A stretch of DNA of 33,034 nucleotides from Thiomargarita sp. (lineage in GTDB: Bacteria > Pseudomonadota > Gammaproteobacteria > Beggiatoales > Beggiatoaceae): contig DZAL01000018.1 of assembly GCA_022729575.1 (NCBI GenBank), positions 1,290 to 34,323 on the forward strand. Direction: 5' to 3'. The notes under the pieces are model-generated. The model did not search any database. It was not told where the DNA came from and saw only the letters and a program-made list of their open reading frames with translations. Below are positions 1,059 to 33,034 of this stretch, piece after piece; within the stretch, counting starts at the first letter, position 1; each line of letters begins with the position of its first letter. The position numbers and the translations under genes were made by a program.

Positions 1059-1062
1059 AGCT

Positions 1063-1288: not shown

Positions 1289-1405
1289 TTACGCACAGTT
1301 AATTCAACCACCCCCAACCCCTCCTTGGTAAGGAGGGGAGTAAACACCACCTAAATCGCATGGAATATTCCCCGCCTTAGCAAGGAGGGGCTAGGGGTGG
1401 TGCGT
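1289..1405. repeat. Family-B nested-hairpin element (CTCATCTTACGCAC...CCACCCCCAACCCCTCCTTGGTAAGGAGGGG ... CCTTAGCAAGGAGGGGCTAGGGGTGGTGCGTAAAGCGAG)
   Basis: Long imperfect inverted repeat; homologous copies at 3221-3356, 6066-6240, 8537-8570 (partial), 24481-24615. Confidence 0.85.
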
Positions 1406-1413
1406 AAAGCGAG

Positions 1414-1701: not shown

Positions 1702-1836
1702 TCAATTTACTCGCTCAATGTAATGACCCAATAAAGTGTATCTAAATCTAAAATTTTTAAATTTAGACAAGATAATGACTATGCTAAACTAGAAAAATGT
1801 GGCAAAATTAGCGCCATTTTATAACTAATTTTAGTA

Positions 1837-2361: not shown

Positions 2362-2374
2362 CCATGGTTTGCTG

Positions 2375-3211: not shown

Positions 3212-3220
3212 ATTTATTTA

Positions 3221-3402
3221 CTCACCTTACGTACTTTTAATTCAACCACCCCCAACCCCTCCTTGGTAAGGAGGGGAGTACGCACTACCGGCACCGCCAG
3301 GATACCCCCCTCCTTACCAAGGAGGGGTTGGGGGTGGTGGTGCGTAAGGTGAGTTATTTAGATTTATTTAGATTTGACAACTTTCGAAAAGTTGTCAAAT
3401 CT
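3221..3402. repeat. Family-B nested-hairpin element (3221-3356) followed by one 33-bp palindrome (3370-3402)
   Basis: Direct reading; CACCTTACGTAC...CCACCCCCAACCCCTCCTTGGTAAGGAGGGG...CCTCCTTACCAAGGAGGGGTTGGGGGTGGTGGTGCGTAAGGTGAG. Confidence 0.85.
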
Positions 3403-3424
3403 GGTGGTATAGAGGAGTATAAAA

Positions 3425-4513
3425 ATGTTAAATAATTTCAAGAATAATCGGTTTTTCTATTTAGATAAATCACTCTTAATCGCATTATTAATTCTTTCCA
3501 GCATCGGACTAATTACGCTCTACAGCGCAGGAGGAGAAAATTTAGACCTCATTGGACGACAAATGATAAGATTTGCCATGGGATTTGGACTCATGCTCAT
3601 ACTCGCCCAAGTCCGTTTACAAGAAGTGACTCGCTGGGTACCTTGGCTTTACCTGAGCGGACTATTTTTGTTGATTGCCGTTATGTTATTTGGGGAAATC
3701 AGTAATGGCTCACAACGCTGGTTAGACTTAGGCTTATTTCGTTTTCAACCGTCAGAAATGATGAAATTGGTGGTGCCGATGATGGTCGCTTGGTACCTGG
3801 CGGACAAATCCTTTCCACCAAGTTTTGGGCGAGTGATGATCGCATTAGTTATGATTATGGTGCCCGTGTTATTAGTCGCCGAGCAACCGGACTTGGGCAC
3901 GTCACTATTAATAGCCGCGGCCGGGATATTCGTACTATGGTTAGCGGGAATCAGTTGGAGCATGATAATCGGTTTTATGGCCATGTTGATGGCCGTGTTA
4001 CCTATTCTGTGGTATTATGTGTTACATAAATATCAGAAAGAACGAATATACACCCTCTTAGATCCAGAAAGAGAGCCACTAGGTACCGGCTATCATATCA
4101 TTCAATCAAAAATCGCGATCGGCTCCGGAGGTATCTATGGTAAAGGCTGGCTCAACGGTACCCAATCGCATTTAGAATTTTTACCAGAACGTTCTACTGA
4201 CTTTATTTTCGCCGTCTTTAGTGAAGAATTTGGCTTAGTAGGCATCTTATTATTGTTATCGGTATATATTTTCATCTTAACACGAGGCGCCTACATTGCG
4301 GCTCAGGCTCAAGGTACTTTTGCCCGTTTATTGGCCGGCAGTTTAGTACTCAGTTTCTTTGTTTATATCTTTGTCAATATCGGAATGGTCACCGGCTTGC
4401 TACCTGTCGTCGGAATCCCATTACCTTTAATCAGCTATGGTGGCACCTCTTTGGTCACTTTAATGGCAGGGTTTGGCTTACTCATGGCAGTATACACACA
4501 TCGACGAATTTAA
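3425..4513 (+). CDS. rodA: Rod shape-determining protein RodA (SEDS family peptidoglycan glycosyltransferase)
   Basis: 10-TM FtsW/RodA/SpoVE architecture, conserved C-terminal GGTS motif; GAGGAG RBS; synteny with mltB-rlpA-dacA. Confidence 0.85.
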   Translation: MLNNFKNNRFFYLDKSLLIALLILSSIGLITLYSAGGENLDLIGRQMIRFAMGFGLMLILAQVRLQEVTRWVPWLYLSGLFLLIAVMLFGEISNGSQRWLDLGLFRFQPSEMMKLVVPMMVAWYLADKSFPPSFGRVMIALVMIMVPVLLVAEQPDLGTSLLIAAAGIFVLWLAGISWSMIIGFMAMLMAVLPILWYYVLHKYQKERIYTLLDPEREPLGTGYHIIQSKIAIGSGGIYGKGWLNGTQSHLEFLPERSTDFIFAVFSEEFGLVGILLLLSVYIFILTRGAYIAAQAQGTFARLLAGSLVLSFFVYIFVNIGMVTGLLPVVGIPLPLISYGGTSLVTLMAGFGLLMAVYTHRRI

Positions 4514-5536
4514 ATGAGGACACCTAAAAAAATGATTGCTACAACCATATTATCACGCACTGGAATTATTTACTGCTTTCTCCTGCTACTCCTCAGTAGT
4601 TGGAATGCGGCGGCTCAAATAGTCCCTCTGGAAACCTTTATCGAAGACATGGTGAGTCGACATGGATTCAATAAACTCGAACTCACCCAATTATTTGCCA
4701 AAACTAAAGTATATAATAGCATTCTCAAAATAATGAATCGCACTACCAGTGGCAAAGGTCGTCCCTGGTACCGTTACCGTTCTAATTTCATCACTGACCA
4801 CCGCATTAGTGAAGGCACCGAATTTTGGCGACAACATGCCGCCGCTTTGAGCCGAGCCGAGGCCACTTACGGGGTGCCGGCCGAAATAATTATCGCTATT
4901 ATCGGGGTCGAAACTATTTATGGCAAAAATACCGGAGACCTCCCGGTATTAGATGCCCTCACCACTATAGCTTTCCACTACCCGCGTCGGGCCGAGTTTT
5001 TCCGCAGTGAATTGGAAGAATTTTTGTTGCTCACCCGAGAAGAGAAGTTAAACCCGCGACTTCCCACTGGCTCTTATGCCGGGGCCATGGGTCTTGGTCA
5101 ATTCATGCCAAGTAGTTTTCGTAAATACGCCGTTGACTTTGATGGTGATGGCAAACGAGATATTTGGGATAATTTCACCGATGCTATCGGTAGTGTTGCC
5201 AACTATTTCCATGGATACGGTTGGCAAACTGGACAACCTGTCATTTTAGCCACGCAAGTGCGTCCAGAGGCCATAAATTCATTACTTTCTGCCGAATTTA
5301 AACCGCTCTTTTCTCTGAAACAACTTAAGCAACAAGGATTACTATTTCAAGATGAACGACTAGATAACCAATTGGGGATGCTGATTGATTTGGAAACTGA
5401 ATTGGGCACTGCCTATTGGGTAGGGTTTGAGAATTTTTATGTCATTACCCGCTATAATCGTAGCGAAAATTACGCCATGGCGGTCTATCAACTTGCACAA
5501 GAAATTGCTAATATTTACTATGCCCAATCTCATTAA
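4514..5536 (+). CDS. mltB: Lytic murein transglycosylase B
   Basis: GAMGLGQFMPSS and DGKRDIW motifs characteristic of MltB; N-terminal signal peptide. Confidence 0.8.
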   Translation: MRTPKKMIATTILSRTGIIYCFLLLLLSSWNAAAQIVPLETFIEDMVSRHGFNKLELTQLFAKTKVYNSILKIMNRTTSGKGRPWYRYRSNFITDHRISEGTEFWRQHAAALSRAEATYGVPAEIIIAIIGVETIYGKNTGDLPVLDALTTIAFHYPRRAEFFRSELEEFLLLTREEKLNPRLPTGSYAGAMGLGQFMPSSFRKYAVDFDGDGKRDIWDNFTDAIGSVANYFHGYGWQTGQPVILATQVRPEAINSLLSAEFKPLFSLKQLKQQGLLFQDERLDNQLGMLIDLETELGTAYWVGFENFYVITRYNRSENYAMAVYQLAQEIANIYYAQSH

Positions 5537-6065
5537 ATTCACTTTCATTGTTAGTCTGTTGGCGGTAATGGCTAATCTATTGGCGTGTACCGCCGTAACC
5601 ACCACGCCTACTGCTATCAAAGTGCCGCCTAAAGTTCAATCTCCTCCGTTGGCTCCTTCAGCACCAACGATGCCACGAGAGGTGTTACGACCATCTCCAG
5701 CAGTTCAAAATAATATTCAAGGTGTGACCTTACCTAAAACCAAACGGCCGAATGCCAGCGGCTATCTAGCAACAGGAAACGCGAGTTGGTCTGGTCTGGC
5801 AAACCATGGTATGAAAACTGCTAGTGGTGAAATATATGATGTATACGGCATGACTGCTGCTCATGCCTCTTTACCATTGTTAGCACGGGTAAGAGTCAAA
5901 AATCTACGCACCGGTAAAAGCGTGATTGTCACCATCAATGACCGTGTTGATAAGTTGTCTTCGAGTAATTTACTTATTAAGTTATCTTATCACGCGGCCC
6001 GACAATTAGGATTACTCAAATCGGTTTCAGCAGTAGAAGTACGTGGATTGGCTGGTGATAGATAA
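5520..6065 (+). CDS. rlpA: Septal ring lytic transglycosylase RlpA (DPBB domain lipoprotein)
   Basis: Lipoprotein signal MPNLIKFTFIVSLLAVMANLLAC then DPBB motifs (GEIYD...LTAAH..LPL...V.V.NL.TGKSV.V.INDR); start moved from 5427 to internal ATG 5520 at lipobox; 17-nt overlap with mltB. Confidence 0.75.
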   Translation: MPNLIKFTFIVSLLAVMANLLACTAVTTTPTAIKVPPKVQSPPLAPSAPTMPREVLRPSPAVQNNIQGVTLPKTKRPNASGYLATGNASWSGLANHGMKTASGEIYDVYGMTAAHASLPLLARVRVKNLRTGKSVIVTINDRVDKLSSSNLLIKLSYHAARQLGLLKSVSAVEVRGLAGDR

Positions 6066-6277
6066 TTACACCTTACGCACAACCACCCCCAACCCCTCCT
6101 TGGTAAGGAGGGGAGTACGTACCACTTGAATTATAGGGTTGACTCCCCTCCTTACCAAGGAGGGGAGTACGTACCACTTGAATTATAGGGTTGACTCCCC
6201 TCCTTACCAAGGAGGGGTTGGGGGTGGTTGTACGATTTGACTCAGATTTGACAACTTTCAAAAAGTTGTCAAATCTA
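6066..6277. repeat. Family-B element with internal tandem duplication of a ~52-bp unit (ACTTGAATTATAGGGTTGACTCCCCTCCTTACCAAGGAGGGGAGTACGTACC) followed by 33-bp palindrome (6245-6277)
   Basis: Direct reading. Confidence 0.85.
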
Positions 6278-6314
6278 AACCCGATTTAGCCACTTAAAAA
6301 ATAGACCTAAAGCC

Positions 6315-7481
6315 ATGAGTAACTACATAAATAATAAGCTAACTCTATACTTGCTAATAAGTAGCCTCTGGATACCTCCACCGTGGCTACTTGCCAATAC
6401 TACTTTAGTACCTCCCCCGCCTCCCATTGAAGCGACTGCTTATCTCCTCCAAGATTTTGATAGTGGTCAAATTTTGATGGAGAAACAAATTCATGAACGG
6501 TTTGAACCCGCCAGTTTAACCAAATTAATGACGGCTTATATTGTCTTTACTAAACTGCGGGCGGGTCATATTCATTTAACCGATATGGTGAAAGTCAGCG
6601 AACAAGCCTGGAGGATGTCAGGCTCTCGTATGTATATTGAGCTTGGTAAGTCAATACCGTTGGAATTATTGTTAAAAGGGATGATTATTCAATCTGGTAA
6701 TGATGCCACCGTGGCCTTAGCTGAACATGTGGCTGGTAGTGAAGACCTGTTTGTCAGCATGATGAATCAACAAGCACAACGATTTGGCTTCAAAAATACC
6801 TTCTATACGAATAGTACAGGCTGGCCTGACGTTAAACAATATAGCAGCCCTTATGACTTGACACAAATAGCGCGAGCGATTATCCAAGATTTTCCAGAAT
6901 ATTACCACTGGTATTCGGAGAAAGAATTTGCTTACAATAATATCACTCAACCTAATCGCAATTTATTATTATGGCGTGACCAAACCGTGGACGGCATGAA
7001 AACTGGATTTACCGAAATCGCGGGATATTGTTTAGTGGCTTCGGCGAAACGAGGTAACATGCGTCTAATGGCTATATTATTGGGAGCAACTAGCAATAAA
7101 ACACGAGCCAGCGAAAGTCAAAAAATATTGGACTACGGATTTCGCTTCTTTGAAACACATCAACTGTATGCCGCTAACCAAGCCATCAAGCAAGAGCGGG
7201 TCCGGCAAGGAAATATGGATTACTTACCTGTAGGATTAAATTCACCTTTGTATGTGACCGTACCTAAAGGTCAATATGAACAATTAATAGTGACCATTCA
7301 AACGGAGCGGCGAATGATGGCACCAGTAGCCAAAGATAAAATCGTCGGGACTTTAAAAATTAGTCTGGGTGAAGAAGTCATATCGGAACGTCCTGTAATC
7401 AGTTTGATGGCAGTAGAAAAAGGTAATTTTTTGAAAATCTGGACCGACCAATTATTATGGTTTTTTAAGAAAGAAAAATAA
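6315..7481 (+). CDS. dacA: D-alanyl-D-alanine carboxypeptidase (PBP5/6 class)
   Basis: SLTKLMT (SxxK), SGN and KTG motifs; signal peptide; synteny rodA-rlpA-dacA as in enterics. Confidence 0.85.
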   Translation: MSNYINNKLTLYLLISSLWIPPPWLLANTTLVPPPPPIEATAYLLQDFDSGQILMEKQIHERFEPASLTKLMTAYIVFTKLRAGHIHLTDMVKVSEQAWRMSGSRMYIELGKSIPLELLLKGMIIQSGNDATVALAEHVAGSEDLFVSMMNQQAQRFGFKNTFYTNSTGWPDVKQYSSPYDLTQIARAIIQDFPEYYHWYSEKEFAYNNITQPNRNLLLWRDQTVDGMKTGFTEIAGYCLVASAKRGNMRLMAILLGATSNKTRASESQKILDYGFRFFETHQLYAANQAIKQERVRQGNMDYLPVGLNSPLYVTVPKGQYEQLIVTIQTERRMMAPVAKDKIVGTLKISLGEEVISERPVISLMAVEKGNFLKIWTDQLLWFFKKEK

Positions 7482-7487
7482 TCACTT

Positions 7488-7610
7488 AGATTTGACAACT
7501 TTTTTAAAACCAGATTTGACAATCTTCAGATTTGACAACTTTTTGAAAGTTGTCAAATCTTTCTTTTCGAAAGTTATCAAATCTTTCTTTTTGAAAGTTA
7601 TCAAATCTTT
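7488..7610. repeat. Cluster of full and half-site copies of the 33-bp palindrome (AGATTTGACAACTT...; degenerate GAAAGTTATCAAATCT x2)
   Basis: Direct reading. Confidence 0.85.
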
Positions 7611-7641
7611 CCTTTAACACCAATTATTATCAATAACACAA

Positions 7642-8484
7642 ATGATTGTTTATCTCAACGGTGAATTTCTACCTCTCACAGAGGCTAAAATCTCGGTTTT
7701 AGACCGCGGTTTCATTTTTGGTGACGGCGTATACGAAGTCGTTCCCGCTTATGGGAGAAAATTATTTCGTCTCCAAGAACATCTGCAACGATTAGATAAC
7801 AGCCTACAAGGTATTAAATTACCTAATCCGTTAAGGCATTCGCAATGGACCGAAGCACTGGAAACTTTGGTCACACATAATTCGAGTGAAGACCAATCGA
7901 TATATCTACAAGTCACTCGTGGTCCCGCGAAACGTGAGCATAATTTTCCAGCCCAAATCTATCCGACGGTCTTTGCCATGAGCGAGCCGTTGATTCCTCC
8001 TCCACGTTCTAATGGGGTCAAAGCCATTACTTGTCCGGATAATCGTTGGCAACGCTGTGATATTAAAGCTGTCACCTTGTTAGCTAACGTCTTGTTGCGT
8101 CAACAAGCAGTGGACACGGGCGCGGTGGAAGCCATTTTAATTCGCGACGGTTATATCATGGAAGGGGCCGCCAGTAATGTCTTTGTCGTTTATAATGGCA
8201 TTGCGATTACTCCCCCCAAGAGTCAATTTATTTTACCCGGCATCACCCGCGATTTAGTCTTAGAAGTAATGCAAGCCGCCCACTTACCGTGCCGTGAAGG
8301 AAATATTTCCGTGACACAACTTCACACCGCCACCGAAATTTGGTTAACCAGTTCTACTCGTGAAATTTTACCCGTAACTACACTCGACTCTCAAATCGTC
8401 GGTAAAGGGGAACCAGGACCACTTTGGTCTCAAGTTTGGCAACTTTATCAAGACTATAAGCAACAATTGCGTAATCATCAGTAA
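7642..8484 (+). CDS. Class IV aminotransferase, D-amino-acid aminotransferase-like
   Basis: DRGF.FGDGVYEV and C-terminal class-IV motifs; could alternatively be PabC/BCAT-family; adjacent to D-Ala carboxypeptidase. Confidence 0.65.
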   Translation: MIVYLNGEFLPLTEAKISVLDRGFIFGDGVYEVVPAYGRKLFRLQEHLQRLDNSLQGIKLPNPLRHSQWTEALETLVTHNSSEDQSIYLQVTRGPAKREHNFPAQIYPTVFAMSEPLIPPPRSNGVKAITCPDNRWQRCDIKAVTLLANVLLRQQAVDTGAVEAILIRDGYIMEGAASNVFVVYNGIAITPPKSQFILPGITRDLVLEVMQAAHLPCREGNISVTQLHTATEIWLTSSTREILPVTTLDSQIVGKGEPGPLWSQVWQLYQDYKQQLRNHQ

Positions 8485-8503
8485 TTCCATCAGTAATTCC
8501 ATC

Positions 8504-8891
8504 AGATTTGACAACTTTGCGAAAGTTGTCAAATCTCTCTAACTCACCTTACGCACCACCACCCCTAGCCCCAATGCCATTAAGTTAAGCCTGCGAAAGA
8601 AACCTTGAAGGTCTAAAACCAGACCTTCAAGGTTAAAACCAGACCGGAGGATTCCCCGCCTTCTTCTCGTTTCCACGCGCCAGCGTGGGAACGAGAAGAA
8701 CTCTCTAACATCTCTTTAAGACTCAGATTTGACAACTTTTCGAAAGTTGTCAAATCTCCTAACATCTCTTTAAGACCCAGATTTGACAATCTGGTCAAAA
8801 GTTGTCAAATCTCTAACACCTCTTTAAGACCCAGATTTGACAACTTTTCGAAAGTTGTCAAATCTAACATCTTTTTAAAAATATCAAATCT
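8504..8891. repeat. Composite repeat block: 33-bp palindrome (8504-8536), partial family-B, family-E hairpins (GCCATTAAGTTAAG...ACCTTGAAGGTCTAAAACCAGACCTTCAAGGT; TTCCACGCGCCAGCGTGGGAA), then 3 tandem palindrome copies with ~21-bp near-identical spacers (8725-8865)
   Basis: Direct reading; the same family-E sequences occur inverted at 24050-24330. Confidence 0.8.
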
Positions 8892-9200
8892 TAATTCTTA
8901 AATCTCTTGTGTTTTTTTTTAAATTATAATATATTTTTTAGTAAGCAAAAGACTAATTAATAAATTTTTACTATTTCCACTATCTGAAAAAACTTTTTTA
9001 TGCTAAACAAGAAGATAATAATATTTGGAGATTGGCATATTTTGGAATGTTATTGATAATAGCCATGGCTATTCCGCTTTTTACGTATAAAAATCTTTCT
9101 AAAAAATTTCTAAAAAATACTGCTTATCAATTTTTATCACAATAGACCCAGATTTGACAACTTTTCGAAAGATTGTAAAATCTAAACCACCGGCCCGATT
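8892..9200 (+). promoter_or_regulatory. ~300-bp AT-rich, A-tract-rich region upstream of giant HK gene; likely promoter/curved-DNA regulatory region; contains one degenerate palindrome copy (9150-9183)
   Basis: Markedly lower GC than flanks; T9 run, short direct repeats TCTAAAAAAT x2. Confidence 0.4.
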
Positions 9201-12200
9201 ATGTTTAAACAGCTCAAAATACGTTCGAAACTGCTACTGGTAATGTTATCTATCAGTTTAATCCCAATTATCCTGATGGGTACTACCATGCTCATCAAAA
9301 GTCGCCAAGCACTGATGCAACAATCCTTTAGTCAATTAGAAAGTGTCCGCGAAATAAAAAAATCCCAACTGGAACGTTTTTTTAACCGACTTCGCAATGA
9401 CATGGCGATCCTCTTAGAAATGGTCTCCATTTCACGACAAAATGCCGCGCAAAAATTGCAAACCGTACAAGAAAATAAAAAAGCACAATTAGAACGCTAC
9501 TTTCAAGAACGTTTAACGGATATTAAGGTACTCTCCGAAAATGACTCCATCGCTCAATCGTTGGAACAATTTAACGGTGCCATCGCCATGGAAGAGCATA
9601 AAATTAAAGGAAATGCTTGGCACTTAGTCGTGGAAAGGTTTGGCCAAGAGTTGACACAGTATAAAGAGAAACAGAATTATTACGATTTATTACTATTAAC
9701 CACCGACGGCACCATAGCCTATACCGTCGAACAACGAGGAGATTTAGGAGAAAATGTAAACACCAGTAAAATTCAACATAATAGCTTGAGTGAAGCATTC
9801 CATCAGGCGATGAAGACCAAAACCGCCGTCATTCGAGATTTTGCGATTTATCCACCGGCGGAAAATCACTACCTGGCCTTTCTCGCCACCCCAGTTTTTC
9901 GCTCTGGTGAAGTAGTCGGATGCCTAGCCTTGGCCCTGTCGGCTGAGGCGGTAAATGCGATTGTGCAGCGCCAAGAAGGGATGAGTAATACCGAAGAAAC
10001 TTTTGTCGTGGGCGAAGACGAGGGACGTATCAGCTATCGCAGTGACCGAGTATTTAAATGGAGTAATCGCAACGTCATCGATCAAGAAGTGACTGGCTCT
10101 GATATTAATGAAGCCTTGGCTGGTCGTAGCAATATTGCCATTAAAAACGACCAAAGTGGCAAACTAGAATTAGGTGCCTACGCACCTTTACAAATTCCCG
10201 GCTTACATTGGGGCATTATCACTTCCATTGCGTTGGAAGAAATTATTACGCCCAAATTGGCAGGACAACAAAGCGATTTTTTTACCAACTATATCACTCA
10301 AAATAACTATTATGACCTCCTACTCATTCATCCTCAAGGCGAAATTTTTTACTCAGTCAAACACGAAGCAGACTATGGCACGAACATTCTGGCTGGTAAA
10401 TTTGCTAACTCTAATCTCAGTCAATTAGTACAAACGGTATTACAAAATAACGAATTTGCGATCAGCGATTACGCGCCCTATCCTCCTGCTAACCAAGCTC
10501 CAGCAGCGTTTACTGCGCAATCTGTATTACGCACTGACCACACCGTTGAACTTATTGTGGTACTTCGCTTAAGCGAAAATAATATCAATCGTATTATGCA
10601 GCAACGTGCTGGGATGGGCAAGACCGGTGAAACTTATCTGGTCGGTAGTGACAAGTTAATGCGCTCGACCACTTTTTTATCACCCAACACCCACTCCATG
10701 ACCGTCTCCTTTGCTCACCCCGATAAAGGCATAGTTGATACTGAAAGTAGTCGCGCTGCGTTACGTGGTGAAACCGGCGAAAAAATTATTCAAGATTACC
10801 AAGGCCATTGGGTATTATCAGCTTACACTCCCATTCAAATGGGTAGCCACACTTGGGCACTGTTAGCGGAAGTTAATCTGACGGAAGCCTTTGCCTCCGT
10901 TTACACCTTACAGTGGATGCTAGGTGGTTTAATCATCCTCGTGGTCTTAACTGTACTTTGGCTAGTAAGACGTTTTATCAAAAATTTCATGTCCCCGCTC
11001 TTAGAAGTCAACGAACATTTGAAAACTCTGGCCCAGGGTCAACTAAGTGACACCGACATTATTTATTACCAACACGACGAGGTGGGCGAAATTGTGACCT
11101 CTTGTAAACGATTAAAAGAAGCCATTCGTAGCACCATCCAACAAGCCAATGAAATTGCCGCCGGCAACTATGAAACTCAAGTCTCTTTACTGTCTTATGA
11201 AGACCAATTAGGCAATGCGTTAACCGAAATGGTTCGCACTTTACGTGCGGTGATAAAACAAGCCAATGCCATCGCCGCTGGCAATTATACGGAAACCATT
11301 CAACCTCTCTCCGACCGTGACCAGTTAGGTAACGCCCTGTCACAAATGACTAAAACTTTGTGCGAATTGACCGCGAAGAATGCCTTGGAAGACTGGTTGA
11401 AAACCGGGCAAATGCAACTCGCTAAAGAGCTTAGTGGCAACCCCAATATCACGACTCTAGCTAATAACATCATCAATTTTCTCTGTCATTACCTAGAAGC
11501 TAAAGTAGGGCTATTTTATTTAGTGGAAGAAGTTCGCTCCAAACCAAACCATACCGACCATAATAGCGACCACCATAACACCGGAGTACCAAGCGAAGCT
11601 TTATCCCAACAATTAAAATTGTTAGCCAGTTATGCCTACACCTGGCGCAAACATCTAGCCAATCGTTTCGACTTTGGAGAAGGAATCGTTGGCCAAGCAG
11701 CTTTAGAGCAACAACCCATTATCCTCACCCAGGTCCCTCTTGAGGCCATTCATATTCAATCGGGACTGATTGACAATGTGCCACGCCAAGTGGCGGTTAT
11801 ACCATTTTTATACGAAGGCAAGGTAAAAGGAGTCGTTGAATTAGGTTTCTTCAATGAAATCGTGGAACGACAATTAGAATTTTTGGCTACCGCCATGCCC
11901 AGTATTGGAATTGCCGTGAATACCGCCGAATCCAGAACCCAATTACAAGAATTATTGCAACAAAGTCAAGTTCAAACCGAAGAATTACAATCTCAAACCG
12001 AAGAATTACAATCTCAAACCGAGGAATTACAGAGTCAACAAGAGGAGTTACGAGAAGCTAATGAAGAATTAGAAGAGCGGACCCGTGAATCAGAGCGGCA
12101 ACAACGAGAGGTGCAAGAACAAAATCGAGTGTTGGAACAAAGTCAGCTAATTTTGCAAGCTAAAACTAACGAGTTAGAATTGGCTAATAAATACAAATCC

Positions 12201-14303
12201 GAATTTCTGGCCAATATGTCCCATGAATTGCGGACCCCATTGAATAGCTTATTGATTTTAGCGCAAATTTTAACGGAGAATAAAGCCGGTAATTTGACCA
12301 GCAAGCAAATTGAATACGCCCAAACTATTCACAATGCCGGGAATGACCTACTCACACTGATTAACGACATCCTAGATTTATCCAAAGTAGAATCTGGTAA
12401 ATTAGAAGTCCATTGGGAAGAGGTGCCGCTACTAGATTTCATGGACGGTACGCGACAAAAATTTCAGCATGTGGCGGAACAAAAAAAGCTTCTCTTCCAA
12501 GTGGATATTAGCGAGGACCTGGCCGAAGTGGTTTTGCACACCGATGGACAAAGGCTCAAGCAGATTATTAATAATCTATTGTCGAATGCGTTTAAATTCA
12601 CCCCCAAAGGTCAAGTTAAGCTAGAAGTAAAGCGAGTTAACCGCGATTCCTGGGCCGGCACCAAAGATGGCTTCTTTGAACAACATACCAACCTGTTAGC
12701 CATCACCGTGGCCGACACTGGTATTGGCATTCCCAAAGATAAACAAAACCTAATTTTTGAAGCCTTCCAACAAGCCGATGGCACCACCAGTCGCCGTTAT
12801 GGCGGCACCGGCTTAGGATTAACCATTTCTCGCCAATTAGCGCAACTCCTGGGTGGCAAGATTCTTTTAGACAGCGGCGAAACTCAAGGCAGCCGCTTTA
12901 CCTTGTATTTACCGGTGAGCCCGGTAAAGAAAACTACTCTGGTCCCGTCAGATCACCAGACGGGAGTCCAAGACATGTCTTGGACTCCAACCCACGCTCC
13001 GCGTGGGAGCGCCCAGACCGAACTTCAAAGCGTCGCGTCGCCAGTAGCAGAGGAGCTAGAAACCGAGAAAAATTTATCACTCACACCGCCGACCATACCC
13101 AGCGATGATAGAAATAACCTCAGCCCTAACGACAAAGTTATCCTCATCATCGAAGATGACCAGAAATTTTCAGCGATTCTCCTGGAATTGACGCATGAAA
13201 AAAATTTCAAATGCTTGATTTCTGAAGACGGTAAAACTGGCCTACAACTGGCGGAAAAGTATCAACCCAGTGCGATTATTCTGGATATTAGTCTGCCACA
13301 AATGGATGGCTGGACGGTGATGGAAAAACTTAAGGATAATCCTAAAACTCGTCATATCCCAGTACATTTTATGTCGGCTTCACACCAAGATATGTCAGCC
13401 AAACGCATGGGAGCCATTGGTTATCTACTAAAACCGGTGAATATCGCCGAAATTACTGAAGCATTTAAGAAAATTGAACAATTTATCACTCGGACCGTCA
13501 AGCACTTATTATTAATAGTAGATAACTCGGTGCGACAACAACAAATTCTGGAACTTATTGGCGCAACTGAGGTACAATTCGATACCAGTGCTACGGTCCA
13601 CACTGCATTGCAACAATTGCATCATCAATCGTATGATTGTATTATCCTAGATGCCGAAGTAGAAAATAACACCGGGTTTAAATTTTTAGAACAATTACAT
13701 CAATCGGACCAATTGGCTCAAATTCCAGTTATCATCTATACCGAAAGAGAGCTCACTGCTCAAGAAGAGTTATTATTGCAACGTTACGCGGACAATTTAA
13801 CCGTCAAAACTGTGAAAACGCCAGAATGTTTACTAGATGAGGCCATGTTGTTTTTACACCAATTGGAAGCCAATTTGTCTAAAGAAAAACGCACGATGTT
13901 ACGGCGCCTCCATGACAAAGAAGCGATTTTAGCCCATAAAAAAGTGCTACTGGTGGATGATGATATGCGTAATACCTTTGCGCTGACCACCATTTTAGAA
14001 GAAAAAGAGATGGAAGTATTGATTGCGGAAACCGGCACCGAGGCCTTGGCGTTACTCAATGAATTACCGGACGTTAACCTGGTGTTGATGGACATTATGA
14101 TGCCAGAAATGGATGGATATGAAACGATTCGACAAATCCGTGCCCAAGCGCGATTTCGTAAATTACCTATCATTGCGTTGACGGCGAAAGCGATGAAAGG
14201 AGACAAAACTAAATGTTTAGAAGCCGGCGCTAATGACTATTTGGCTAAACCAGTAGATATTGATAAGTTGATGTCGTTAATGCGAGTGTGGCTGTATCGG
14301 TGA
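9201..14303 (+). CDS. Giant hybrid sensor histidine kinase: TM1 - two tandem periplasmic Cache-like modules - TM2 - tandem HAMP - GAF - coiled coil - HisKA - HATPase_c - three receiver (REC) domains
   Basis: TM at aa ~10-30 and ~575-595; duplicated NYYDLLL..DG.I.Y periplasmic modules; IAAGNY..DQLGNAL HAMP x2; [11 protein letters not shown]-box; GGTGLGL G2-box; REC signatures ILIIEDD/ILDISLPQMDGW, LLIVDNS, VLLVDDD/LMDIMMPEMDGYE...KP. Confidence 0.85.
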   Translation: MFKQLKIRSKLLLVMLSISLIPIILMGTTMLIKSRQALMQQSFSQLESVREIKKSQLERFFNRLRNDMAILLEMVSISRQNAAQKLQTVQENKKAQLERYFQERLTDIKVLSENDSIAQSLEQFNGAIAMEEHKIKGNAWHLVVERFGQELTQYKEKQNYYDLLLLTTDGTIAYTVEQRGDLGENVNTSKIQHNSLSEAFHQAMKTKTAVIRDFAIYPPAENHYLAFLATPVFRSGEVVGCLALALSAEAVNAIVQRQEGMSNTEETFVVGEDEGRISYRSDRVFKWSNRNVIDQEVTGSDINEALAGRSNIAIKNDQSGKLELGAYAPLQIPGLHWGIITSIALEEIITPKLAGQQSDFFTNYITQNNYYDLLLIHPQGEIFYSVKHEADYGTNILAGKFANSNLSQLVQTVLQNNEFAISDYAPYPPANQAPAAFTAQSVLRTDHTVELIVVLRLSENNINRIMQQRAGMGKTGETYLVGSDKLMRSTTFLSPNTHSMTVSFAHPDKGIVDTESSRAALRGETGEKIIQDYQGHWVLSAYTPIQMGSHTWALLAEVNLTEAFASVYTLQWMLGGLIILVVLTVLWLVRRFIKNFMSPLLEVNEHLKTLAQGQLSDTDIIYYQHDEVGEIVTSCKRLKEAIRSTIQQANEIAAGNYETQVSLLSYEDQLGNALTEMVRTLRAVIKQANAIAAGNYTETIQPLSDRDQLGNALSQMTKTLCELTAKNALEDWLKTGQMQLAKELSGNPNITTLANNIINFLCHYLEAKVGLFYLVEEVRSKPNHTDHNSDHHNTGVPSEALSQQLKLLASYAYTWRKHLANRFDFGEGIVGQAALEQQPIILTQVPLEAIHIQSGLIDNVPRQVAVIPFLYEGKVKGVVELGFFNEIVERQLEFLATAMPSIGIAVNTAESRTQLQELLQQSQVQTEELQSQTEELQSQTEELQSQQEELREANEELEERTRESERQQREVQEQNRVLEQSQLILQAKTNELELANKYKSEFLANMSHELRTPLNSLLILAQILTENKAGNLTSKQIEYAQTIHNAGNDLLTLINDILDLSKVESGKLEVHWEEVPLLDFMDGTRQKFQHVAEQKKLLFQVDISEDLAEVVLHTDGQRLKQIINNLLSNAFKFTPKGQVKLEVKRVNRDSWAGTKDGFFEQHTNLLAITVADTGIGIPKDKQNLIFEAFQQADGTTSRRYGGTGLGLTISRQLAQLLGGKILLDSGETQGSRFTLYLPVSPVKKTTLVPSDHQTGVQDMSWTPTHAPRGSAQTELQSVASPVAEELETEKNLSLTPPTIPSDDRNNLSPNDKVILIIEDDQKFSAILLELTHEKNFKCLISEDGKTGLQLAEKYQPSAIILDISLPQMDGWTVMEKLKDNPKTRHIPVHFMSASHQDMSAKRMGAIGYLLKPVNIAEITEAFKKIEQFITRTVKHLLLIVDNSVRQQQILELIGATEVQFDTSATVHTALQQLHHQSYDCIILDAEVENNTGFKFLEQLHQSDQLAQIPVIIYTERELTAQEELLLQRYADNLTVKTVKTPECLLDEAMLFLHQLEANLSKEKRTMLRRLHDKEAILAHKKVLLVDDDMRNTFALTTILEEKEMEVLIAETGTEALALLNELPDVNLVLMDIMMPEMDGYETIRQIRAQARFRKLPIIALTAKAMKGDKTKCLEAGANDYLAKPVDIDKLMSLMRVWLYR
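11973..12035 (+). repeat. In-frame 21-bp tandem repeat x3 (CAAACCGAAGAATTACAATCT) encoding heptad QTEELQS x3 in the coiled-coil linker preceding HisKA
   Basis: Direct reading; 21 bp = 7 aa = one coiled-coil heptad. Confidence 0.9.
12944..13007 (+). repeat. Three consecutive hairpin palindromes embedded in-frame in the HATPase-REC linker of the giant HK (CCCGTC..GACGGG; GGAGTCCAAGACATGTCTTGGACTCC; CCCACGCTCCGCGTGGG)
   Basis: Direct reading; motifs match intergenic hairpin families (GGAGTCC..GGACTCC; CCCACGCG..CGTGGG at 8676-8697 and 24060-24320). Confidence 0.75.
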
Positions 14304-14326
14304 AACCATTCGGTTTCGATTTGGTT

Positions 14327-14359
14327 TAGATTTGACAACTTTCAAAAAGTTGTCAAATC
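14327..14359. repeat. Single 33-bp palindrome between HK genes, followed by direct repeats GTATTCAAA(A)CGG x3
   Basis: Direct reading. Confidence 0.85.
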
Positions 14360-14459
14360 TGTATTCAAAACGGTATTCAAATCGGTGTTCAAACTAATCG
14401 TAACTGGGGGAAAACCATAACCATAAACTACCCTCTATTTCTTCCAAAGGAGGCAACCA

Positions 14460-16547
14460 ATGTTCGCGACCGATTCTTTTAATCTCTTGATTGTTGACGA
14501 TAACAAAAACAATTTATTCAGTCTGCAAAGTTTAATTAATCAACATATTACCGAAGCCAATATTTTTGAAGCAGACTCCGGTAGTATGGCCTTAAAAATT
14601 TTGCTGAAAGAACAAATTGATTTGATTATACTAGATGTGCAAATGCCAGAAATGGACGGTTTTGAAACCGCTAAAGTCATTCGTTCACGCAAAAAAACCC
14701 AACATATTCCCATCGTGTTTTTAACCGCCGCTTATAAGACTGAAGAGTTTAAGCAAAAAGGATTTGAAGTAGGGGCCGCCGATTATTTGACCAAACCGAT
14801 TGATACTGCTCAATTAATCAGTAGAATTCGAACTTATTTACGCTTTCTTCAACAAGAGCGTCTTCATAAACAAGAATTAGAACGCAAAGTTCAAGAGCGT
14901 ACCGTTGAATTATTAGAAACTAACCAATTGCTCAAGCAGGAAATTTTACAACGATTAAAGATCGAAGAAGAACTTAAGCATGCCAAGGAAAAAGCCGAAA
15001 CTGCGAATTTGTCCAAAAGTCAATTTTTGGCCAATATAAGTCATGAATTACGGACCCCGCTTAACGCCATTATTGGCTACAGTGAAATGTTGATGGAAGA
15101 AATCGAAGACTGGGGCGAAACGGCTTTAACCACTGATTTACAAAAGATTCATTCTTCTGGAAAACATTTACTGGGATTGATTAACGATGTGTTGGACCTC
15201 TCCAAGATTGAAGCGGGTAAGATGGAACTATCGATAGAAACTTTTGACCTAAAAATAGTGATCAATGAAGTCATTAACACGATTCAACCTTTGGTCGAAA
15301 AGAAAGCTAATACACTTATTGTTAATGAACTAAATACCTTGAGTACGATGCACTCTGATATAACTAAATTGCGCCAAATGCTATTGAATTTATTGAGCAA
15401 CGCCGCCAAATTTACGGAGCAAGGACAGATTCAGTTGACCATTCAGTCAGAATGGCGTGAGGAGCAGAGTTGGTATACCTTTATCGTCTCGGACAATGGG
15501 ATTGGCATGACCAAGGAACAACAGAAAAAATTATTCCAACCGTTTACCCAAGCTGACGCTTCCACTACTCGCCGTTATGGCGGCACCGGTTTAGGATTAG
15601 CGATTACCAAAGAATTTGCAGGAATGATGGGAGGACATATCACCGTCTCCAGTGAATTTGGCCAAGGCACCACGTTAAGCATTACGTTACCTGCCACCAC
15701 CATCACACCCAGCAATAAAGCGCAACTTAACACGATGTCGTCTCCCGCCAATCACCCTAACTCTTTGCTCCCGTTGGTAGGCGAAGGAATCGTGTTAGTG
15801 ATAGATGATGACCACATCATACGCGAAGTGCTCAAAGATGATTTAAGCAAATTAGGATATGCGGTAGCAGTAGCAGTTGATGGCGAGGAAGGTATTAAGT
15901 TGGCGAAAAAGCTACGACCCGATGCCATTTTACTAGATATTAAAATGCCAGGGATGGATGGTTGGGTGGTCTTATCCGCTTTAAAAAATGACTCCTTACT
16001 CTGTGATATTCCAGTCATCATAATTTCCATGGAAGAGAATAAACACGATGGCTATGCGATGGGCGCGGCCGATTGCATGACCAAACCAGTGAAGCGTGAG
16101 CAATTAGCCAGTATCCTCAAAAAATACCATGTAGGTGACGACTCCCAAAGTCTAGTCATGTTGGTAGAAGATGATGTGATAATTCGAGAAATTATGGCCA
16201 ATATGTTAACCAGTGAAGGTTGGCGAGTCTTTAAAGCCGAAAATGGTAAAGTCGCCTTGGAACATTTAGCGGATAAGAAACCGTCCTTGATTTTATTAGA
16301 CTTAGTCATGCCGGAAATGGACGGTTTTGAATTTTTGGCACACCTCCAAAACCATGAACAATGGAATTCTATTCCCATCGTAGTCCTAACCGCTAAAAAT
16401 CTAACGGTGGAAGAATATGGACGCTTAAATAACCATGTCCAAACTATTTTTCACAAAGAATCTTATGCGCAAGACGACTTGATTTTGCATATTCACAAAT
16501 TGATTAGTGGCTCTACGCTACCGGCCACCACGCGCCCCAAAAGTTGA
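14460..16547 (+). CDS. Cytoplasmic hybrid histidine kinase, REC - coiled coil - HisKA - HATPase_c - REC - REC
   Basis: N-terminal REC ([30 protein letters not shown]), [12 protein letters not shown]-box, GGTGLGL, two C-terminal REC; AAGGAGG RBS; no TM segments. Confidence 0.85.
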
Positions 16548-16568
16548 CAACTTTCGAAAGTTGTCAAC
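16541..16568. repeat. Variant palindrome AGTTGACAACTTTCGAAAGTTGTCAACT overlapping the stop codon of the second HK
   Basis: Direct reading; TGA stop at 16545-16547 is inside the repeat. Confidence 0.8.
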
Positions 16569-16598
16569 TCTGGTAAACCAGACCAGGAGAAACTAACT

Positions 16599-18740
16599 AT
16601 GTCTAATCATTGGGTAGAAGAATCCTTTAATCCTCTCAATCCGTTTAATCTATTGGTTGTGGATGATAATAAAAATAATCGCTTTACGTTGCAATCACTG
16701 ATTCAACAGTATATTCAAGCCAATATTTTTGAAGCCGACTCCGGTGCCGCCGCTTTAAAAATTTTGCTGAAGGAAAAAATCGATTTGATTTTGTTAGATG
16801 TCCAAATGCCAGAAATGGATGGCTTTGAAACCGCCCAAGCCATTCGAACCCGAAAAAAGACTCAACATATTCCAATTGTTTTTCTCACCGCAGCCTACAA
16901 AACGGAAGAATTTAAACAAAGAGGATTTGAGGTGGGAGCCGTCGATTATCTCACCAAACCGCTGGATACTTCACAATTAATTAGTCGAATTAAAACCTAT
17001 CTCCGTTTTATTGAACAAGACCGCAAACATCATTCAGAACTGGAACGAAAAGTGCGTGAGCGGACCGCGGAATTAATAGAAACCCGTAATCAACTAGAGC
17101 GGCGGGTAGCCGAGCGGACCACCGAATTACATCTGGCTAAACAAAAAGCGGAACAAGCACAAAAGTTAGCCGAAACCGCTAATTTTGCGAAAAGTCAATT
17201 TTTAGCGAATATGAGCCATGAATTGCGGACCCCGTTAAACGCTATCATTGGCTATAGTGAAATTGTCTTCGAAGAAGCCACCGACAATGAAGACGAAATT
17301 TATCTACCAGACCTCAACAAAATTTTAGCGGCGGCTAAACATTTACTAGGATTAATCAATGACATTTTAGACATCTCGAAAATTGAAGCCGGTAAAATGG
17401 AAGTGGTAGCAGAAACCTTTGAATTAAATACTTTAGTTCAAGAAGTCTTGGAGACCATTCAACCCTTAATTGACAAAAAAGCTAACCAATTAACCGTCAC
17501 CCTACCTGAAGTCATCGGCACTATGCACACCGATGCCGTTAAATTGCGTCAGATGTTACTCAATTTATTAAGTAACGCCGCCAAGTTTACCGAGCAAGGA
17601 CACATTCAATTAGAGATCACACGACAGCGGCAAGCCGCGCACGAATGGGTAAGTTTTCGCGTCATCGATAATGGGATTGGCATGACCGAAGAACAACAAG
17701 TGAAGTTATTTCAGCCATTCACCCAAGCCGATGCCTCCACCACCCGACGCTATGGTGGTACCGGCTTAGGATTAGCCATTACCAAAAAATTCACTGAAAT
17801 GATGGGCGGTAAGGTTTTGGTACACAGTGAATTTGGTAAGGGGAGCACTTTAACCATTGAATTACCAGCTTACTTGCCAATTAAACCATCGGTGTCTGCG
17901 GCCACTTCAATCGTATCGAAACCGCTACTCTCAGTTCAAGATAAAATCTTGCCCGGACAGGGTGTTATTTTGATTATTGAAGATGACCTTAATTGGTGTG
18001 AAACTCTCAAAACTGAACTCACCCAATTAGGTTATGCGGTGGCTATAGCAACCAATGAAGAAGAAGGTTTAGAGCGTGCGCACAAATTGCGACCAGATGC
18101 CATTTTATTGGATATACAAATCTCTAACGGCGACGGTTGGCGAATTTTATCTAACCTCAAAGCTAACCCAGTGTTAGGACATATTCCGATTATTATGTTG
18201 TCTTGGCATGAGCAAGAGCCGCGCGGATATGCGTTAAATATGACTGATTACCTAGAAAAGCCTCTGAAACGTGAGCAATTGGCAACGATTCTGAAAAAAT
18301 ATCATTTGGGAGATGCTTCTCAAAAACTGGTGATGGTAGTGGAAGACGAGGACTTTTTGCGTGAAATCATGACGACTATGCTTGAAGTAGAAGGATGGCG
18401 CGTGTTTCCAGCGGAAAATGGTCAAATCGCGTTAGAACTTCTGGAAACTAAAAAGCCGGTATTGATTCTCCTAGATTTAAATATGCCGGTGATGGATGGT
18501 TTTGAATTTCTTAATTGTTTGCAAAGTCATGACCAGTGGCGAAATATTCCAGTGGTGATACTGACCGCCAGACAGTTAACCACCGACGAGCAAACTCGCT
18601 TAAATAAAGCGGTACAAGTACAAACTATTTTTCACAAAGAAACCTATGAAAAGGATATTTTACTGAATCGTATTCATAAACTGATTGCCGACTCGGTCCA
18701 AACTCGTGAACCTGTGATCGCAAAAAATGATTGGGAATGA
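16599..18740 (+). CDS. Cytoplasmic hybrid histidine kinase, tandem paralog of 14460..16547 (REC-HisKA-HATPase_c-REC-REC)
   Basis: Collinear domain order and high sequence similarity to upstream gene (e.g. identical [43 protein letters not shown] blocks). Confidence 0.85.
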
Positions 18741-18780: not shown

Positions 18781-18936
18781 CTACGCGGTCAGGACTGGCA
18801 GTCCTTTGAGGACTGCCAATCCTAGGTTCTAACTACGCGGTCAGGACTGGTAGTCCTTTGAGGACTGCCAGTCCTAGGTTCTAACTACGCGGTCAGGACT
18901 GGCAGTCCTTTGAGGACTGCCAGTCCTAGATTCTAA
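18781..18936. repeat. Three tandem 52-bp units, each a 15/15-bp inverted repeat AGGACTGGCAGTCCT TTG AGGACTGCCAGTCCT (hairpin), preceded by TGAATGGTAAAA x2 at HK stop
   Basis: Direct reading. Confidence 0.9.
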
Positions 18937-19004
18937 CCCAAATATCAAGACTACCCGGGATGGAATAAGTAGTCAACTGTTAATTTCAGAAAGAGGAGCA
19001 ATTT

Positions 19005-27489: not shown

Positions 27490-27760
27490 AGATTTGACAA
27501 CTTTCGAAAAGTTGTCAAATCTTTCTTCGTAAAGTTTCCGATTTGACAACTTTCGAAAAGTTGTCAAATCTTTCTTCGTAAAGTTTCCGATTTGACAACT
27601 TTCGAAAAGTTGTCAAATCTTTCCTCGTAAAGTTTCAGATTTGACAACTTTCGAAAAGTTGTCAAATCTTTAGTTCGAAAGTTCCAGATTTGACAACTTT
27701 CGAAAAGTTGTCAAATCTAGCTCACCGATTTGACAACTTTCGAAAAGTTGTCAAATCTTA
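27490..27760. repeat. Six tandem copies of the 33-bp palindrome between convergent genes; spacers are duplicates of the yyaL stop-codon flank (TTCTTCGTAAAGTTTCC)
   Basis: Direct reading; likely bidirectional terminator array. Confidence 0.9.
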
Positions 27761-30500: not shown

Positions 30501-30565
30501 CCCCATTGGCTGGTAGGGACTACCCATTTTAGATATTTACCACTCACTGCTACAATAAATAATCT

Positions 30566-32092: not shown

Positions 32093-32905
32093 TTAATCCC
32101 ATTCAAAACTCTGTACCACCACTATCCCCCGGGCCTGTGCCAGGTCAAGGACCGCAGGATGAACTACATGTGTGATGAGTAAAGGGACGATAGGTTGAGA
32201 GAATACCTGTTGGACCCCGTTAACATGATTTGCCAATTTTCGCAATTTGGAACGGTCATCCAACTTCAACACGGTCTCTCCCACTATCAATACTTCTTGT
32301 CCATGACGGGTCGCTTTGGCAAATAAATTGATTTCCTCCCCACCAATAAACCGACGTACAAAACGTTCAGTTATCTCTAATTGATGATGAGTTTTCAGAT
32401 ACGCTGGCAGTTTTCGGAAGGCCTCATTTTCCAACGCATAAGACACACTCTTGGATAAGCCGCCCACTTGACTTCTGGTTGTATTCAAACCATGAGATAA
32501 CTTAGCAATTTCTTGTTCGGTGCGGGCTTGCGCCTGGGCTAACGCGGTTTGTGCCAGGGTTAACTCTTCCAAGCGTTGTTCGGTGCGGGCTTGCGCCTGG
32601 GCTAACGCGGTTTGTGCCAGGGTTAACTCTTCCAAGCGTTGTTCGGTGCGGGTTTGCGCCTGGGCTAACGCGGTTTGTACCAGGGTTAACTCTTCCAAGC
32701 GTTGTTCGGTGCGGGCCTGGGCCAGCGTCAAGTCTTTCACCGCGTGACTGAGGTCTCTCACAATCTCCTTGAGTTCATTAAACTCCGTTTTGGTGACCGA
32801 ATCTTCCCGGTGTCGTTCGATTTCCTCCAAAATCATCCACAGTAAATTCTTAAGGCCAGGTTCAAGTATCTCTAACTGTCGTAGCAAATTGACACTAAAC
32901 ATCAT
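32093..32905 (-). CDS. Hypothetical protein: N-terminal coiled coil with 21-aa tandem repeats (TEQRLEELTLAQTALAQAQAR x3) and a conserved-looking globular C-terminal domain
   Basis: ORF with good length; repeats are perfect at DNA level; C-terminal ~110 aa non-repetitive (GQEVLIVGETVLKLDDRSKL...). Confidence 0.6.
   Translation of the reverse strand: MMFSVNLLRQLEILEPGLKNLLWMILEEIERHREDSVTKTEFNELKEIVRDLSHAVKDLTLAQARTEQRLEELTLVQTALAQAQTRTEQRLEELTLAQTALAQAQARTEQRLEELTLAQTALAQAQARTEQEIAKLSHGLNTTRSQVGGLSKSVSYALENEAFRKLPAYLKTHHQLEITERFVRRFIGGEEINLFAKATRHGQEVLIVGETVLKLDDRSKLRKLANHVNGVQQVFSQPIVPLLITHVVHPAVLDLAQARGIVVVQSFEWD
32520..32715. repeat. 63-bp tandem repeat x3.3 inside the coiled-coil CDS
   Basis: Direct reading (CTTGTTCGGTGCGGGCTTGCGCCTGGGCTAACGCGGTTTGTGCCAGGGTTAACTCTTCCAAGCGTTG...). 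Confidence 0.9.
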
Positions 32906-32936: not shown

Positions 32937-33034
32937 AGATTTGACAACTTTTTGAAAGTTGTCAAATCTAAGTAGCCAAAGCAGATTTGACAACTTTTTG
33001 AAAGTTGTCAAATCTAAGTAGCCAAAGCAGATTT
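32937..33034. repeat. Tandem copies of the 33-bp palindrome (period 47, spacer AAGTAGCCAAAGC), truncated by window end
   Basis: Direct reading. Confidence 0.9.

Follow-up and report, generated by a model that had tools for sequence, protein, structure and literature searches.

The DNA stretch analyzed here, hereafter called the window (33,034 nt of a Thiomargarita sp. genome), contains a short palindrome that recurs between its genes, in several places as tandem arrays, and this raises the question of what kind of element it is and how it multiplies. The first-pass annotation had described it as a REP/BIME-like family whose arrays grow by duplication of the palindrome plus its flank, and at its core this description turned out to be right. 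According to the reading favored here, to which we assign a probability of about 0.88, the palindrome is a REP with a cognate REP-associated tyrosine transposase (RAYT), its copies are seeded by the RAYT and multiplied by local duplication, and the system probably derives from a transfer out of the Bacteroidota.

The repeated unit, AGATTTGACAACTTT-NNN-AAAGTTGTCAAATCT, consists of 15-nt arms flanking a 3-nt centre (33 bp in total) and not of 12-bp/12-bp arms as initially annotated. Searching with up to two substitutions per arm yielded 22 full copies in 33 kb, where none are expected; half copies and decayed copies are present in addition to these. The 33-mer AGATTTGACAACTTTCGAAAAGTTGTCAAATCT, with up to three mismatches allowed, produced 36 strand-matches, distributed over 21 places of the window, but none in 100 dinucleotide-preserving shuffles of it, and the 12-nt arm core was matched 53 times versus 0.39 times expected. 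The hairpin has a folding energy of -13.5 kcal/mol as DNA (z = -7.6) and of -16.8 kcal/mol as RNA, with four G-C pairs among the 15 of its stem, and since the unit is a near-perfect palindrome with a free centre base, both strands yield the same hairpin. Across 123 distinct REP variants, 67 compensated double changes retain pairing, mainly at stem positions 2-4 and 8 (a count that ignores kinship between variants), and such compensation on the opposite arm indicates that the hairpin is what is conserved.

A short hairpin-forming palindrome of 20-40 bp present in many copies per genome is what defines a REP, and the 33-bp unit corresponds to this definition. Its ends are AGAT/ATCT, without the terminal GTAG/CGTC tag. 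As the REP superfamilies described so far bear a conserved GTAG or CGTC tag (PMC3733652), the palindrome lies outside these two superfamilies, but still within REPs as a class; atypical REPs are also known for subclass 2.6 (PMC6006769; PMC5581495). The window matches no Rfam family, a full-text literature search with the arm sequence matched unrelated primers only, and the element is not described in the literature on Beggiatoa with RAYT or palindromic repeats. The sequence is therefore new to the searchable literature, while the kind of system to which it belongs is already known.

All 22 full copies are located outside coding regions, with intergenic DNA accounting for 14% of the window; the copy at 20104 overlaps the vault gene only by way of its called TTG start, which is doubtful. 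REPs are found in 11 of the 22 intergenic gaps, i.e., in about half and not in "nearly every" gap as annotated, and six gaps contain tandem arrays, whose periods range from 43 to 54 bp. The density in the window is 0.67 REPs per kb, and most copies start 4-50 nt 3′ of a stop codon. Each of the 12 positions or ranges listed by the annotation does hold a copy or a remnant. As for the gene contexts it had named, the co-directional and convergent ones were confirmed and are the only ones in the window, whereas both divergent gaps (1702-1836 and 30528-30565) are devoid of REPs.

The first tandem array (1-131), situated downstream of TraB, is cut by the window start and contains two full copies (41-73 and 91-123) and a partial one at a period of 50; in its complete form, on contig L098, it has four units. 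Single REPs are found between nadC and rodA (3370-3402, CGA centre, adjoining an unrelated palindromic element) and upstream of dacA (6244-6276). The composite cluster at 7488-7610 is made up of two left half-REPs, a full REP (7528-7560) and two right half-REPs, with a half-REP repeat period of 24 (Tandem Repeats Finder, 7539-7615). A single REP (8504-8536) lies 19 nt after the stop codon of an aminotransferase gene and is followed by an array with a period of 54 (8702-8878, Tandem Repeats Finder), in which two full copies (8725-8757 and 8833-8865) enclose a middle copy with a disrupted centre (8779-8811), and by a decayed REP at 9149-9183 with the right arm AAAGATTGTAAAATCT. Another single REP (14328-14360) starts 24 nt after the stop codon of a 1700-aa kinase. 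At 16541-16570, the left arm of a short-armed variant, GTTGACAACTTT-CG-AAAGTTGTCAAC, includes the TGA with which the kinase gene 14460-16547 ends, in agreement with the stop-codon overlap annotated near 16545; an akin variant, CAGTTGACAACTTT..AAAGTTGTCAACTG, flanks the RAYT of locus L169.

In the downstream half of the window, an array of four units with 10-nt spacers and a period of 43 (19585-19746; Tandem Repeats Finder span 19583-19765) begins 4 nt after the stop of a YfiR-like gene, and a decayed fifth half copy comes after it. A single variant with compensated ends (AAATTT...AAATT) is located at 20104-20136, upstream of a vault-protein homologue. The array of six REPs at 27490-27758 (Tandem Repeats Finder span 27478-27759) fills the gap between the convergent DUF255 and ilvH genes, starting 6 nt past one stop codon and stopping 6 nt short of the other, and is identical in contigs L096 and L100. 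Two Logan contigs carrying the gene at 25375-27483 (L097 and L105) stop exactly at the start of this array. The last array (32937-33034, period 46; Tandem Repeats Finder from 32934) contains two full copies and is cut by the window end, its complete form comprising six units and one decayed copy (L100, L101).

The same intergenic gaps are also occupied by at least four further small palindromic repeat families, namely CCCCTCCTT..AAGGAGGGG units (3243-3360, 6093-6217, 24505-24600), three copies of GGACTGGCAGTCC-TTTGA-GGACTGCCAGTCC (18781-18937), GTTCCCACGCGCTGGCGTGGGAA (8655-8700, 24060-24130, 24235-24330) and AACCTTGAAGGTCT..AGACCTTCAAGGTT (8600-8645, 24158-24201). Indels between the window genome and a relative from the Baltic Sea also involve these other families. 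Regarding the genes of the window, the vault homologue (20126-22762, plus strand) is homologous over the full length to the Major Vault Protein of eukaryotes and is encoded here by a member of the Beggiatoaceae; Pfam recognizes in it four Vault repeats, Vault_2/3/4 and the MVP shoulder domain, and its true start is likely the ATG at 20180. At 9201-18740 (plus strand), three hybrid histidine kinase genes follow one another; their products have 1700, 695 and 713 aa and three receiver-domain matches apiece. The gene at 1837-2361 (plus strand), which adjoins nadC and is kept in the Baltic relative, has a 174-aa product in which an aspartyl protease domain of the retroviral type was recognized (gag-asp_proteas, E=2e-27). 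The ORF at 32093-32905 (minus strand), whose product has no Pfam match, contains a 63-bp in-frame tandem repeat (32513-32723; 3.3 copies, 96% identical).

A scan of one genome per species identified at least 95 loci with GATTTGACAACTTT-NNN-AAAGTTGTCAAATC. Among the loci listed, the conserved unit is the palindrome only (A-GATTTGACAACTTT-[T/C]N[A/G]-AAAGTTGTCAAATC-T), the flanks being unrelated. Clustering of the ORFs near the palindrome revealed one recurrent family, encoding a protein of ~210 aa, at 6 of the 95 loci listed; in all six, REPs lie within 83 bp on both sides of the gene, and in four a REP lies inside it. We then considered 80 independent metagenome loci encoding this family at 53-95% identity to the query. 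Here, the same REP was present anywhere at the locus in 63 cases, at most 200 bp from the gene in 61, on both sides of it in 46 and in frame inside it, encoding DLTTFxKLSNL, in 46. Taken together, gene and REP are associated at 67 of 86 loci. In relatives that lack this REP, the gene has variant palindromes built to the same design on its flanks, and a clade at ~55% identity retains the identical REP.

The associated protein has a length of about 208-210 aa, and its NHFH (HUH) and YYIHxNPQ (Tyr) motifs are invariant in 17 sequences. It matches the NCBIfam family NF047646 (REP_Tyr_transpos) over the full length (E=1e-14), with 54 bits against a cut-off of 80, and has no match in Pfam, including Y1_Tnp (PF01797). 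The sole sequence match in the PDB is 4ER8, the E. coli RAYT (TnpA-REP) in complex with a REP hairpin. The same entry is the best fold match of a predicted model of the protein (mean pLDDT 65; E=3.6e-5, prob 1.0, TM 0.56), and the ISDra2 and IS608 transposases come next. The HUH motif and a catalytic Tyr (Y-x3-NP) on a Y1 transposase fold are the features of a RAYT, and judged by its motifs and its modeled fold, the associated protein is such a transposase. The family comprises at least 902 clusters at 90% identity and 844 representatives at 50% identity (E<=1e-30), and some of its members already bear the name RayT in the source databases.

The RAYT gene itself was found by tblastn and HMM search neither in the window nor in the Frasassi contigs L096-L105 nor in the Desulfobacterales loci. 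The proteins of the window have exact copies in the MAG GCA_973680025.1 (contig CCYTUG010000116.1), in the JGI metagenomes 3300000228 (TB_PC08_66) and 3300000236 (TB_FS08_3) and in run SRR1559230; these sample names and the run belong to a study of sulfidic cave biofilms from Frasassi/Acquasanta (PMC4288042). A RAYT with flanking palindromes, a gene which the first-pass annotation had proposed to look for elsewhere in the genome, is indeed encoded on another contig of this MAG (CCYTUG010000241.1). This protein, P0419, was found via the 90%-identity cluster of a Baltic RAYT and recurs in the Frasassi metagenome 3300000236 on a contig of 19 kb. Its gene is preceded by four REPs, the last of which ends 28 nt before the ATG, and followed by six, the first of which starts 11 nt past the stop, with one more REP in frame. 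The 13.6-kb locus contains 30 REPs, all but one with the TCG/CGA centre seen in the window, and its G+C content is 0.437 versus 0.430 for the window. The genome thus holds a cognate, REP-flanked RAYT, with the contig and the window being linked by MAG binning and by common REP type, G+C and sample, and not by one contiguous sequence. Since a RAYT flanked by the palindrome sits elsewhere in the same genome, the palindrome is to be regarded as a REP and not as CRISPR-like.

Two further candidates for the Frasassi RAYT were rejected: P0050 sits on a Bacteroidota contig, and P0009 comes from another sample. The Baltic RAYT (contig L109, metagenome 3300000792) is located amid REP arrays with the window-type CGA/TCG centre and is followed by hsdR; the same metagenome also contains L191 and L192, shorter contigs of the Baltic relative. 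In the Frasassi genome, the RAYT and its REP arrays are embedded in a type I restriction-modification locus, with hsdM/Uma2 on one side and hsdR on the other (L196, 6537-13267), and there as well as in the Baltic relative hsdR comes directly after the RAYT. The presence on one MAG contig together with the orthologous hsdR-adjacent locus in the relative suggests that the RAYT behaves as a resident gene and not as a multi-copy insertion sequence.

Compared with known REP/RAYT systems ("REPtrons", such as E. coli REP/TnpA-REP, and the Pseudomonas REPINs), the present one likewise combines a short hairpin-forming extragenic palindrome of high copy number with a single HUH/Tyr transposase gene that has REPs on its flanks; the REP sequence co-varies with the RAYT, tandem clusters include flanking DNA, and REPs at times overlap stop codons (PMC3733652). 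Unlike in those systems, the 33-bp REP of the window is palindromic almost throughout, is free to vary at its central base, has no 5′ GTAG/CGTC tag, and forms arrays of direct singlet repeats, neither inverted doublets (REPINs) nor alternating BIME motifs. According to Bertels and Rainey, the replicating unit of a REPIN is reportedly a doublet of two inversely oriented REPs; the copies found here are singlets or direct tandem units. The BIMEs of E. coli are similar in being intergenic mosaic clusters of REPs with a variable number of tandem units, but they alternate Y and Z orientations with defined linkers, whereas the arrays of the window consist of direct units with linkers from the local flank and show neither alternating orientations nor defined linker motifs. 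With the TnpA of the IS200/IS605 family, the RAYT shares the enzyme fold and, by analogy, the recognition of a hairpin in single-stranded DNA; in contrast to that family, however, the window REP does not form the terminus of an insertion sequence that carries genes.

In its motifs, as distinct from placement in a tree, the RAYT resembles TnpA-REP subclass 2.4 (Quentin et al., 2018), which equals RAYT group 4 (Bertels et al., 2017) and has a patchy distribution in Bacteroidetes, Cyanobacteria and other phyla (PMC6006769; PMC5581495). Its hallmark are in-frame REPs between HuH and Tyr (PMC6006769), and such a REP is present here as well, including in the RAYT of this genome. Common to both are furthermore the NH[IFV]H motif and the patchy range over Bacteroidetes and other phyla, which suggests horizontal transfer. 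Differences concern the published 2.4 REPs, which have three basal G-C pairs or GTRG/CYAC "double feet" in place of the AGAT/ATCT found here, the Tyr motif (YIH[ASY]NP here, YIxNNP there), and the abundance, with ~14 repeats per replicon reported for group 4 and about 0.7-2 per kb observed here.

Information on how the arrays arise comes from their spacers, which consist of the initial bases of the right flank and then the final bases of the left flank. In the array at 27490, five units with a period of 49 are composed of TCGTAAAGTTCC (12 nt of the gene end, including the stop codon), the REP and TTCT, while the sixth REP is preceded by a different spacer. The spacers of this array measure 16 nt, not 17 bp as annotated, but do repeat the end of the upstream gene (TCGTAAAGTT, including the TAA stop), as the annotation had noticed. 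The unit of the array downstream of TraB is ATCAGTTT (8 nt left), the REP and GAGTTCAAA (9 nt right), and the unit of the array at the window end is AGC, the REP and AAGTAGCCAA. From this composition it follows that the duplicated segment is a REP with 3-12 nt of left and 4-10 nt of right flank. Array periods of 39, 43, 45, 46, 49, 50, 54 and 56 bp are found in this genome and of 87 and 128 bp in Bacteroidota loci, and the spacers (6-21 nt) are near-identical within each array. The centre triplet is also constant within each array and, therefore, so is the REP orientation. Tandem reiteration of REPs plus flanking DNA has been reported before, with no mechanism given (PMC3733652).

Evidence for turnover of the arrays was obtained from the Baltic Sea metagenome contig L190, which is syntenic with positions 1-9460 of the window (~92% nucleotide identity) and contains 13 REPs. 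Five REP sites are common to both, among them the one upstream of dacA and the decayed copy at 9149-9183, which has the same substitutions in L190 and is thus an old copy; each genome also has one private site, and the REP at 3370-3402 is missing at the corresponding site of L190. The private sites are an indirect hint that the RAYT mobilises the REP. The L190 array downstream of TraB has 12 extra nt per spacer relative to the window, and in the array after the aminotransferase gene both unit numbers and spacings differ, from which we conclude that arrays were remodelled after the two lineages split. No clean pair of filled and empty REP sites was found between window and L190, so that insertion is not directly seen; the two indels are composite, involve other palindromic elements and have no readable insertion boundary or target duplication. 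Within one strain, the same array has eight REP units in one assembly (L196, 701-1092) and three in another (L197, 967-1092), with 0 mismatches over 9.6 kb apart from this difference, which could be a real polymorphism or a repeat collapse in assembly.

Among the loci listed, the identical REP is found in many Bacteroidota, including isolates of Mucilaginibacter, Taibaiella, Arcicella, Aquirufa and Polaribacter, and in several independent Desulfobacterales MAGs. In a Desulfamplus contig it sits between fliC and fliD, a placement implying that this contig does not stem from Bacteroidota. The identical REP is present in MAGs of two other phyla, a Desulfatirhabdium MAG (SulCav_PC08_64, L023) and a Draconibacterium MAG (SulCav_GS10_10, L010 and L018), the contigs being assigned by MAG binning; both labels match Frasassi sample IDs of the cave biofilm study (PMC4288042). 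Viral contigs gave 0 palindrome matches, and hence no sign of a phage vector. By IlvB, the closest named relatives (76-78% identity) comprise Thioploca ingrica, Beggiatoa alba, Candidatus Albibeggiatoa, Parabeggiatoa and Thiomargarita, which places the organism in the Beggiatoaceae (Gammaproteobacteria). Two other Beggiatoaceae loci, 40 kb from a MAG with 84% IlvB identity and from Thioploca ingrica, contain no REP. Loci of other phyla that were picked for holding a REP have 0.14-0.20 REPs per kb. Identity of the Frasassi RAYT amounts to 87% with its Baltic counterpart at the same locus and to 74% with a RAYT from Bacteroidales; a simple distance tree places it within the diversity of Bacteroidota sequences. 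This nesting of the Beggiatoaceae RAYT among those of Bacteroidota suggests cross-phylum transfer, and an acquisition across phyla followed by vertical inheritance and expansion appears likely.

Several other explanations for the palindrome have to be weighed against this. An even spacing of palindromic 33-bp repeats is reminiscent of CRISPR arrays, but the probability that the arrays are CRISPR or CRISPR-like is close to nil: most copies are singletons scattered between genes, the repeat occurs on no viral contig, and whereas CRISPR requires unique spacers of ~26-72 nt, those found here are near-identical per array, measure only 6-21 nt and stem from the local flanks. As, in addition, a Pfam scan of the 20 largest window ORFs revealed no cas domains, CRISPR is excluded by the very features, cas genes and variable spacers, that the annotation had named as decisive. 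A derivation from MITEs or from insertion sequence ends mobilised by a DDE transposase might be considered given that Beggiatoaceae genomes are MITE-rich (PMC4853749). It is nonetheless highly improbable, since the entire conserved unit is 33 bp long with no internal sequence, target-site duplications and a conserved flank are absent, and the recurrent neighbor is an HUH/Tyr enzyme and not a DDE transposase. We also consider it improbable, though less so, that the palindrome serves the host mainly in regulation, by terminating transcription, stabilising mRNA 3′ ends or binding a protein, and is kept abundant by selection and not by a transposase; an operator-site reading was rejected together with it. 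The REPs of E. coli stabilise upstream mRNA, and the position of the copies 4-50 nt after stop codons and also between convergent genes, as well as the stable RNA hairpin, would fit such a role. The bidirectional terminator of the first-pass annotation, however, is not supported: in place of the G+C-rich stem and U-tract of an intrinsic terminator, the palindrome has an A+T-rich stem (4 of 15 pairs G-C) and an inconsistent U-tract, with the T-rich tail supplied by the flanks, a simple terminator scan accepts only three of the copies, and the window has no excess of terminator-like sites (21 vs. 19.8 +/- 5.2 expected from shuffles). The same is true for TTGACA in the arms as a -35 hexamer, as its pairing with -10 boxes is not above chance (46 promoter-like sites vs. 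38.6 +/- 6.6 expected). Furthermore, close Beggiatoaceae relatives manage without the palindrome, tandem arrays of up to eight copies together with half and decayed copies are features of selfish DNA, and the tight association with the RAYT would be unexpected for a host signal.

A different question is whether the RAYT makes the arrays itself, which we regard as possible but unlikely. A single-stranded circle consisting of the REP and short flanks, with the right flank joined to the left, would be excised and re-inserted beside the resident copy in the peel-and-paste style of IS200/IS605 elements, so that neither slippage nor recombination would be necessary. The spacers, exactly right flank and then left flank without obvious microhomology at the junction, look as a circle junction would, and the densest arrays adjoin the RAYT gene. 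On the other hand, the widely varying periods imply that there is no fixed cleavage distance, the flanks of arrays are absent from dispersed copies, and REP-plus-flank reiteration with an unspecified mechanism had already been reported elsewhere (PMC3733652). Moreover, higher-order 49+56 units at the RAYT locus and the period-24 half-REP repeats of the window are better explained by recombination or slippage; together with the varied periods, they fit a rare hairpin-centred duplication followed by slipped-strand or unequal recombination.

Under the favored reading of a REP mobilised by its cognate RAYT and multiplied by local duplication, the single-stranded REP would fold into a 15-bp hairpin that, by analogy, serves as recognition substrate of the RAYT (TnpA-REP, an HUH/Y1 enzyme). 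As suggested by the RAYT of E. coli and by IS200/IS605 enzymes, the transposase most likely nicks and rejoins single-stranded DNA at this hairpin during replication and thereby seeds REP copies into non-essential DNA just 3′ of genes. Array anatomy and strain differences point to a local duplication of the REP with a few flanking bases on each side, after which arrays would grow and shrink via slipped-strand or unequal recombination between units. The system probably entered the lineage horizontally from Bacteroidota and would since then have been passed on vertically, with its locus unchanged. Any effect of the REPs on mRNA 3′ ends would be secondary, although the RNA hairpin could protect these ends as E. 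coli REPs do.

The palindrome and its transposase represent a well-defined REP/RAYT pair with an unusually simple substrate, a perfect palindrome without a GTAG tag, and the same REP is documented in at least three phyla. Its dense expansion, to about 0.7-2 copies per kb, would make this lineage useful for studying the spread of REPs and the formation of arrays. On the practical side, short-read assemblies of the organism break at REP arrays, and the arrays could be mistaken for CRISPRs. The most interesting aspect is the spread of the unchanged REP across phyla, which is partly established. A more far-reaching proposal, which we put forward tentatively and at somewhat below even odds, is that one REP/RAYT lineage moved among Bacteroidota, Desulfobacterales and Beggiatoaceae, some of whose members live in the same sulfidic cave biofilms, with the 30 stem bases remaining identical while the transposase diverged to ~53% identity, and that it grew to ~1 copy per kb and is still active. 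The REPIN-RAYT systems of Pseudomonas and E. coli are vertically inherited. If the proposal is true, the system described here would be a natural example of a horizontally mobile and currently proliferating REP system.
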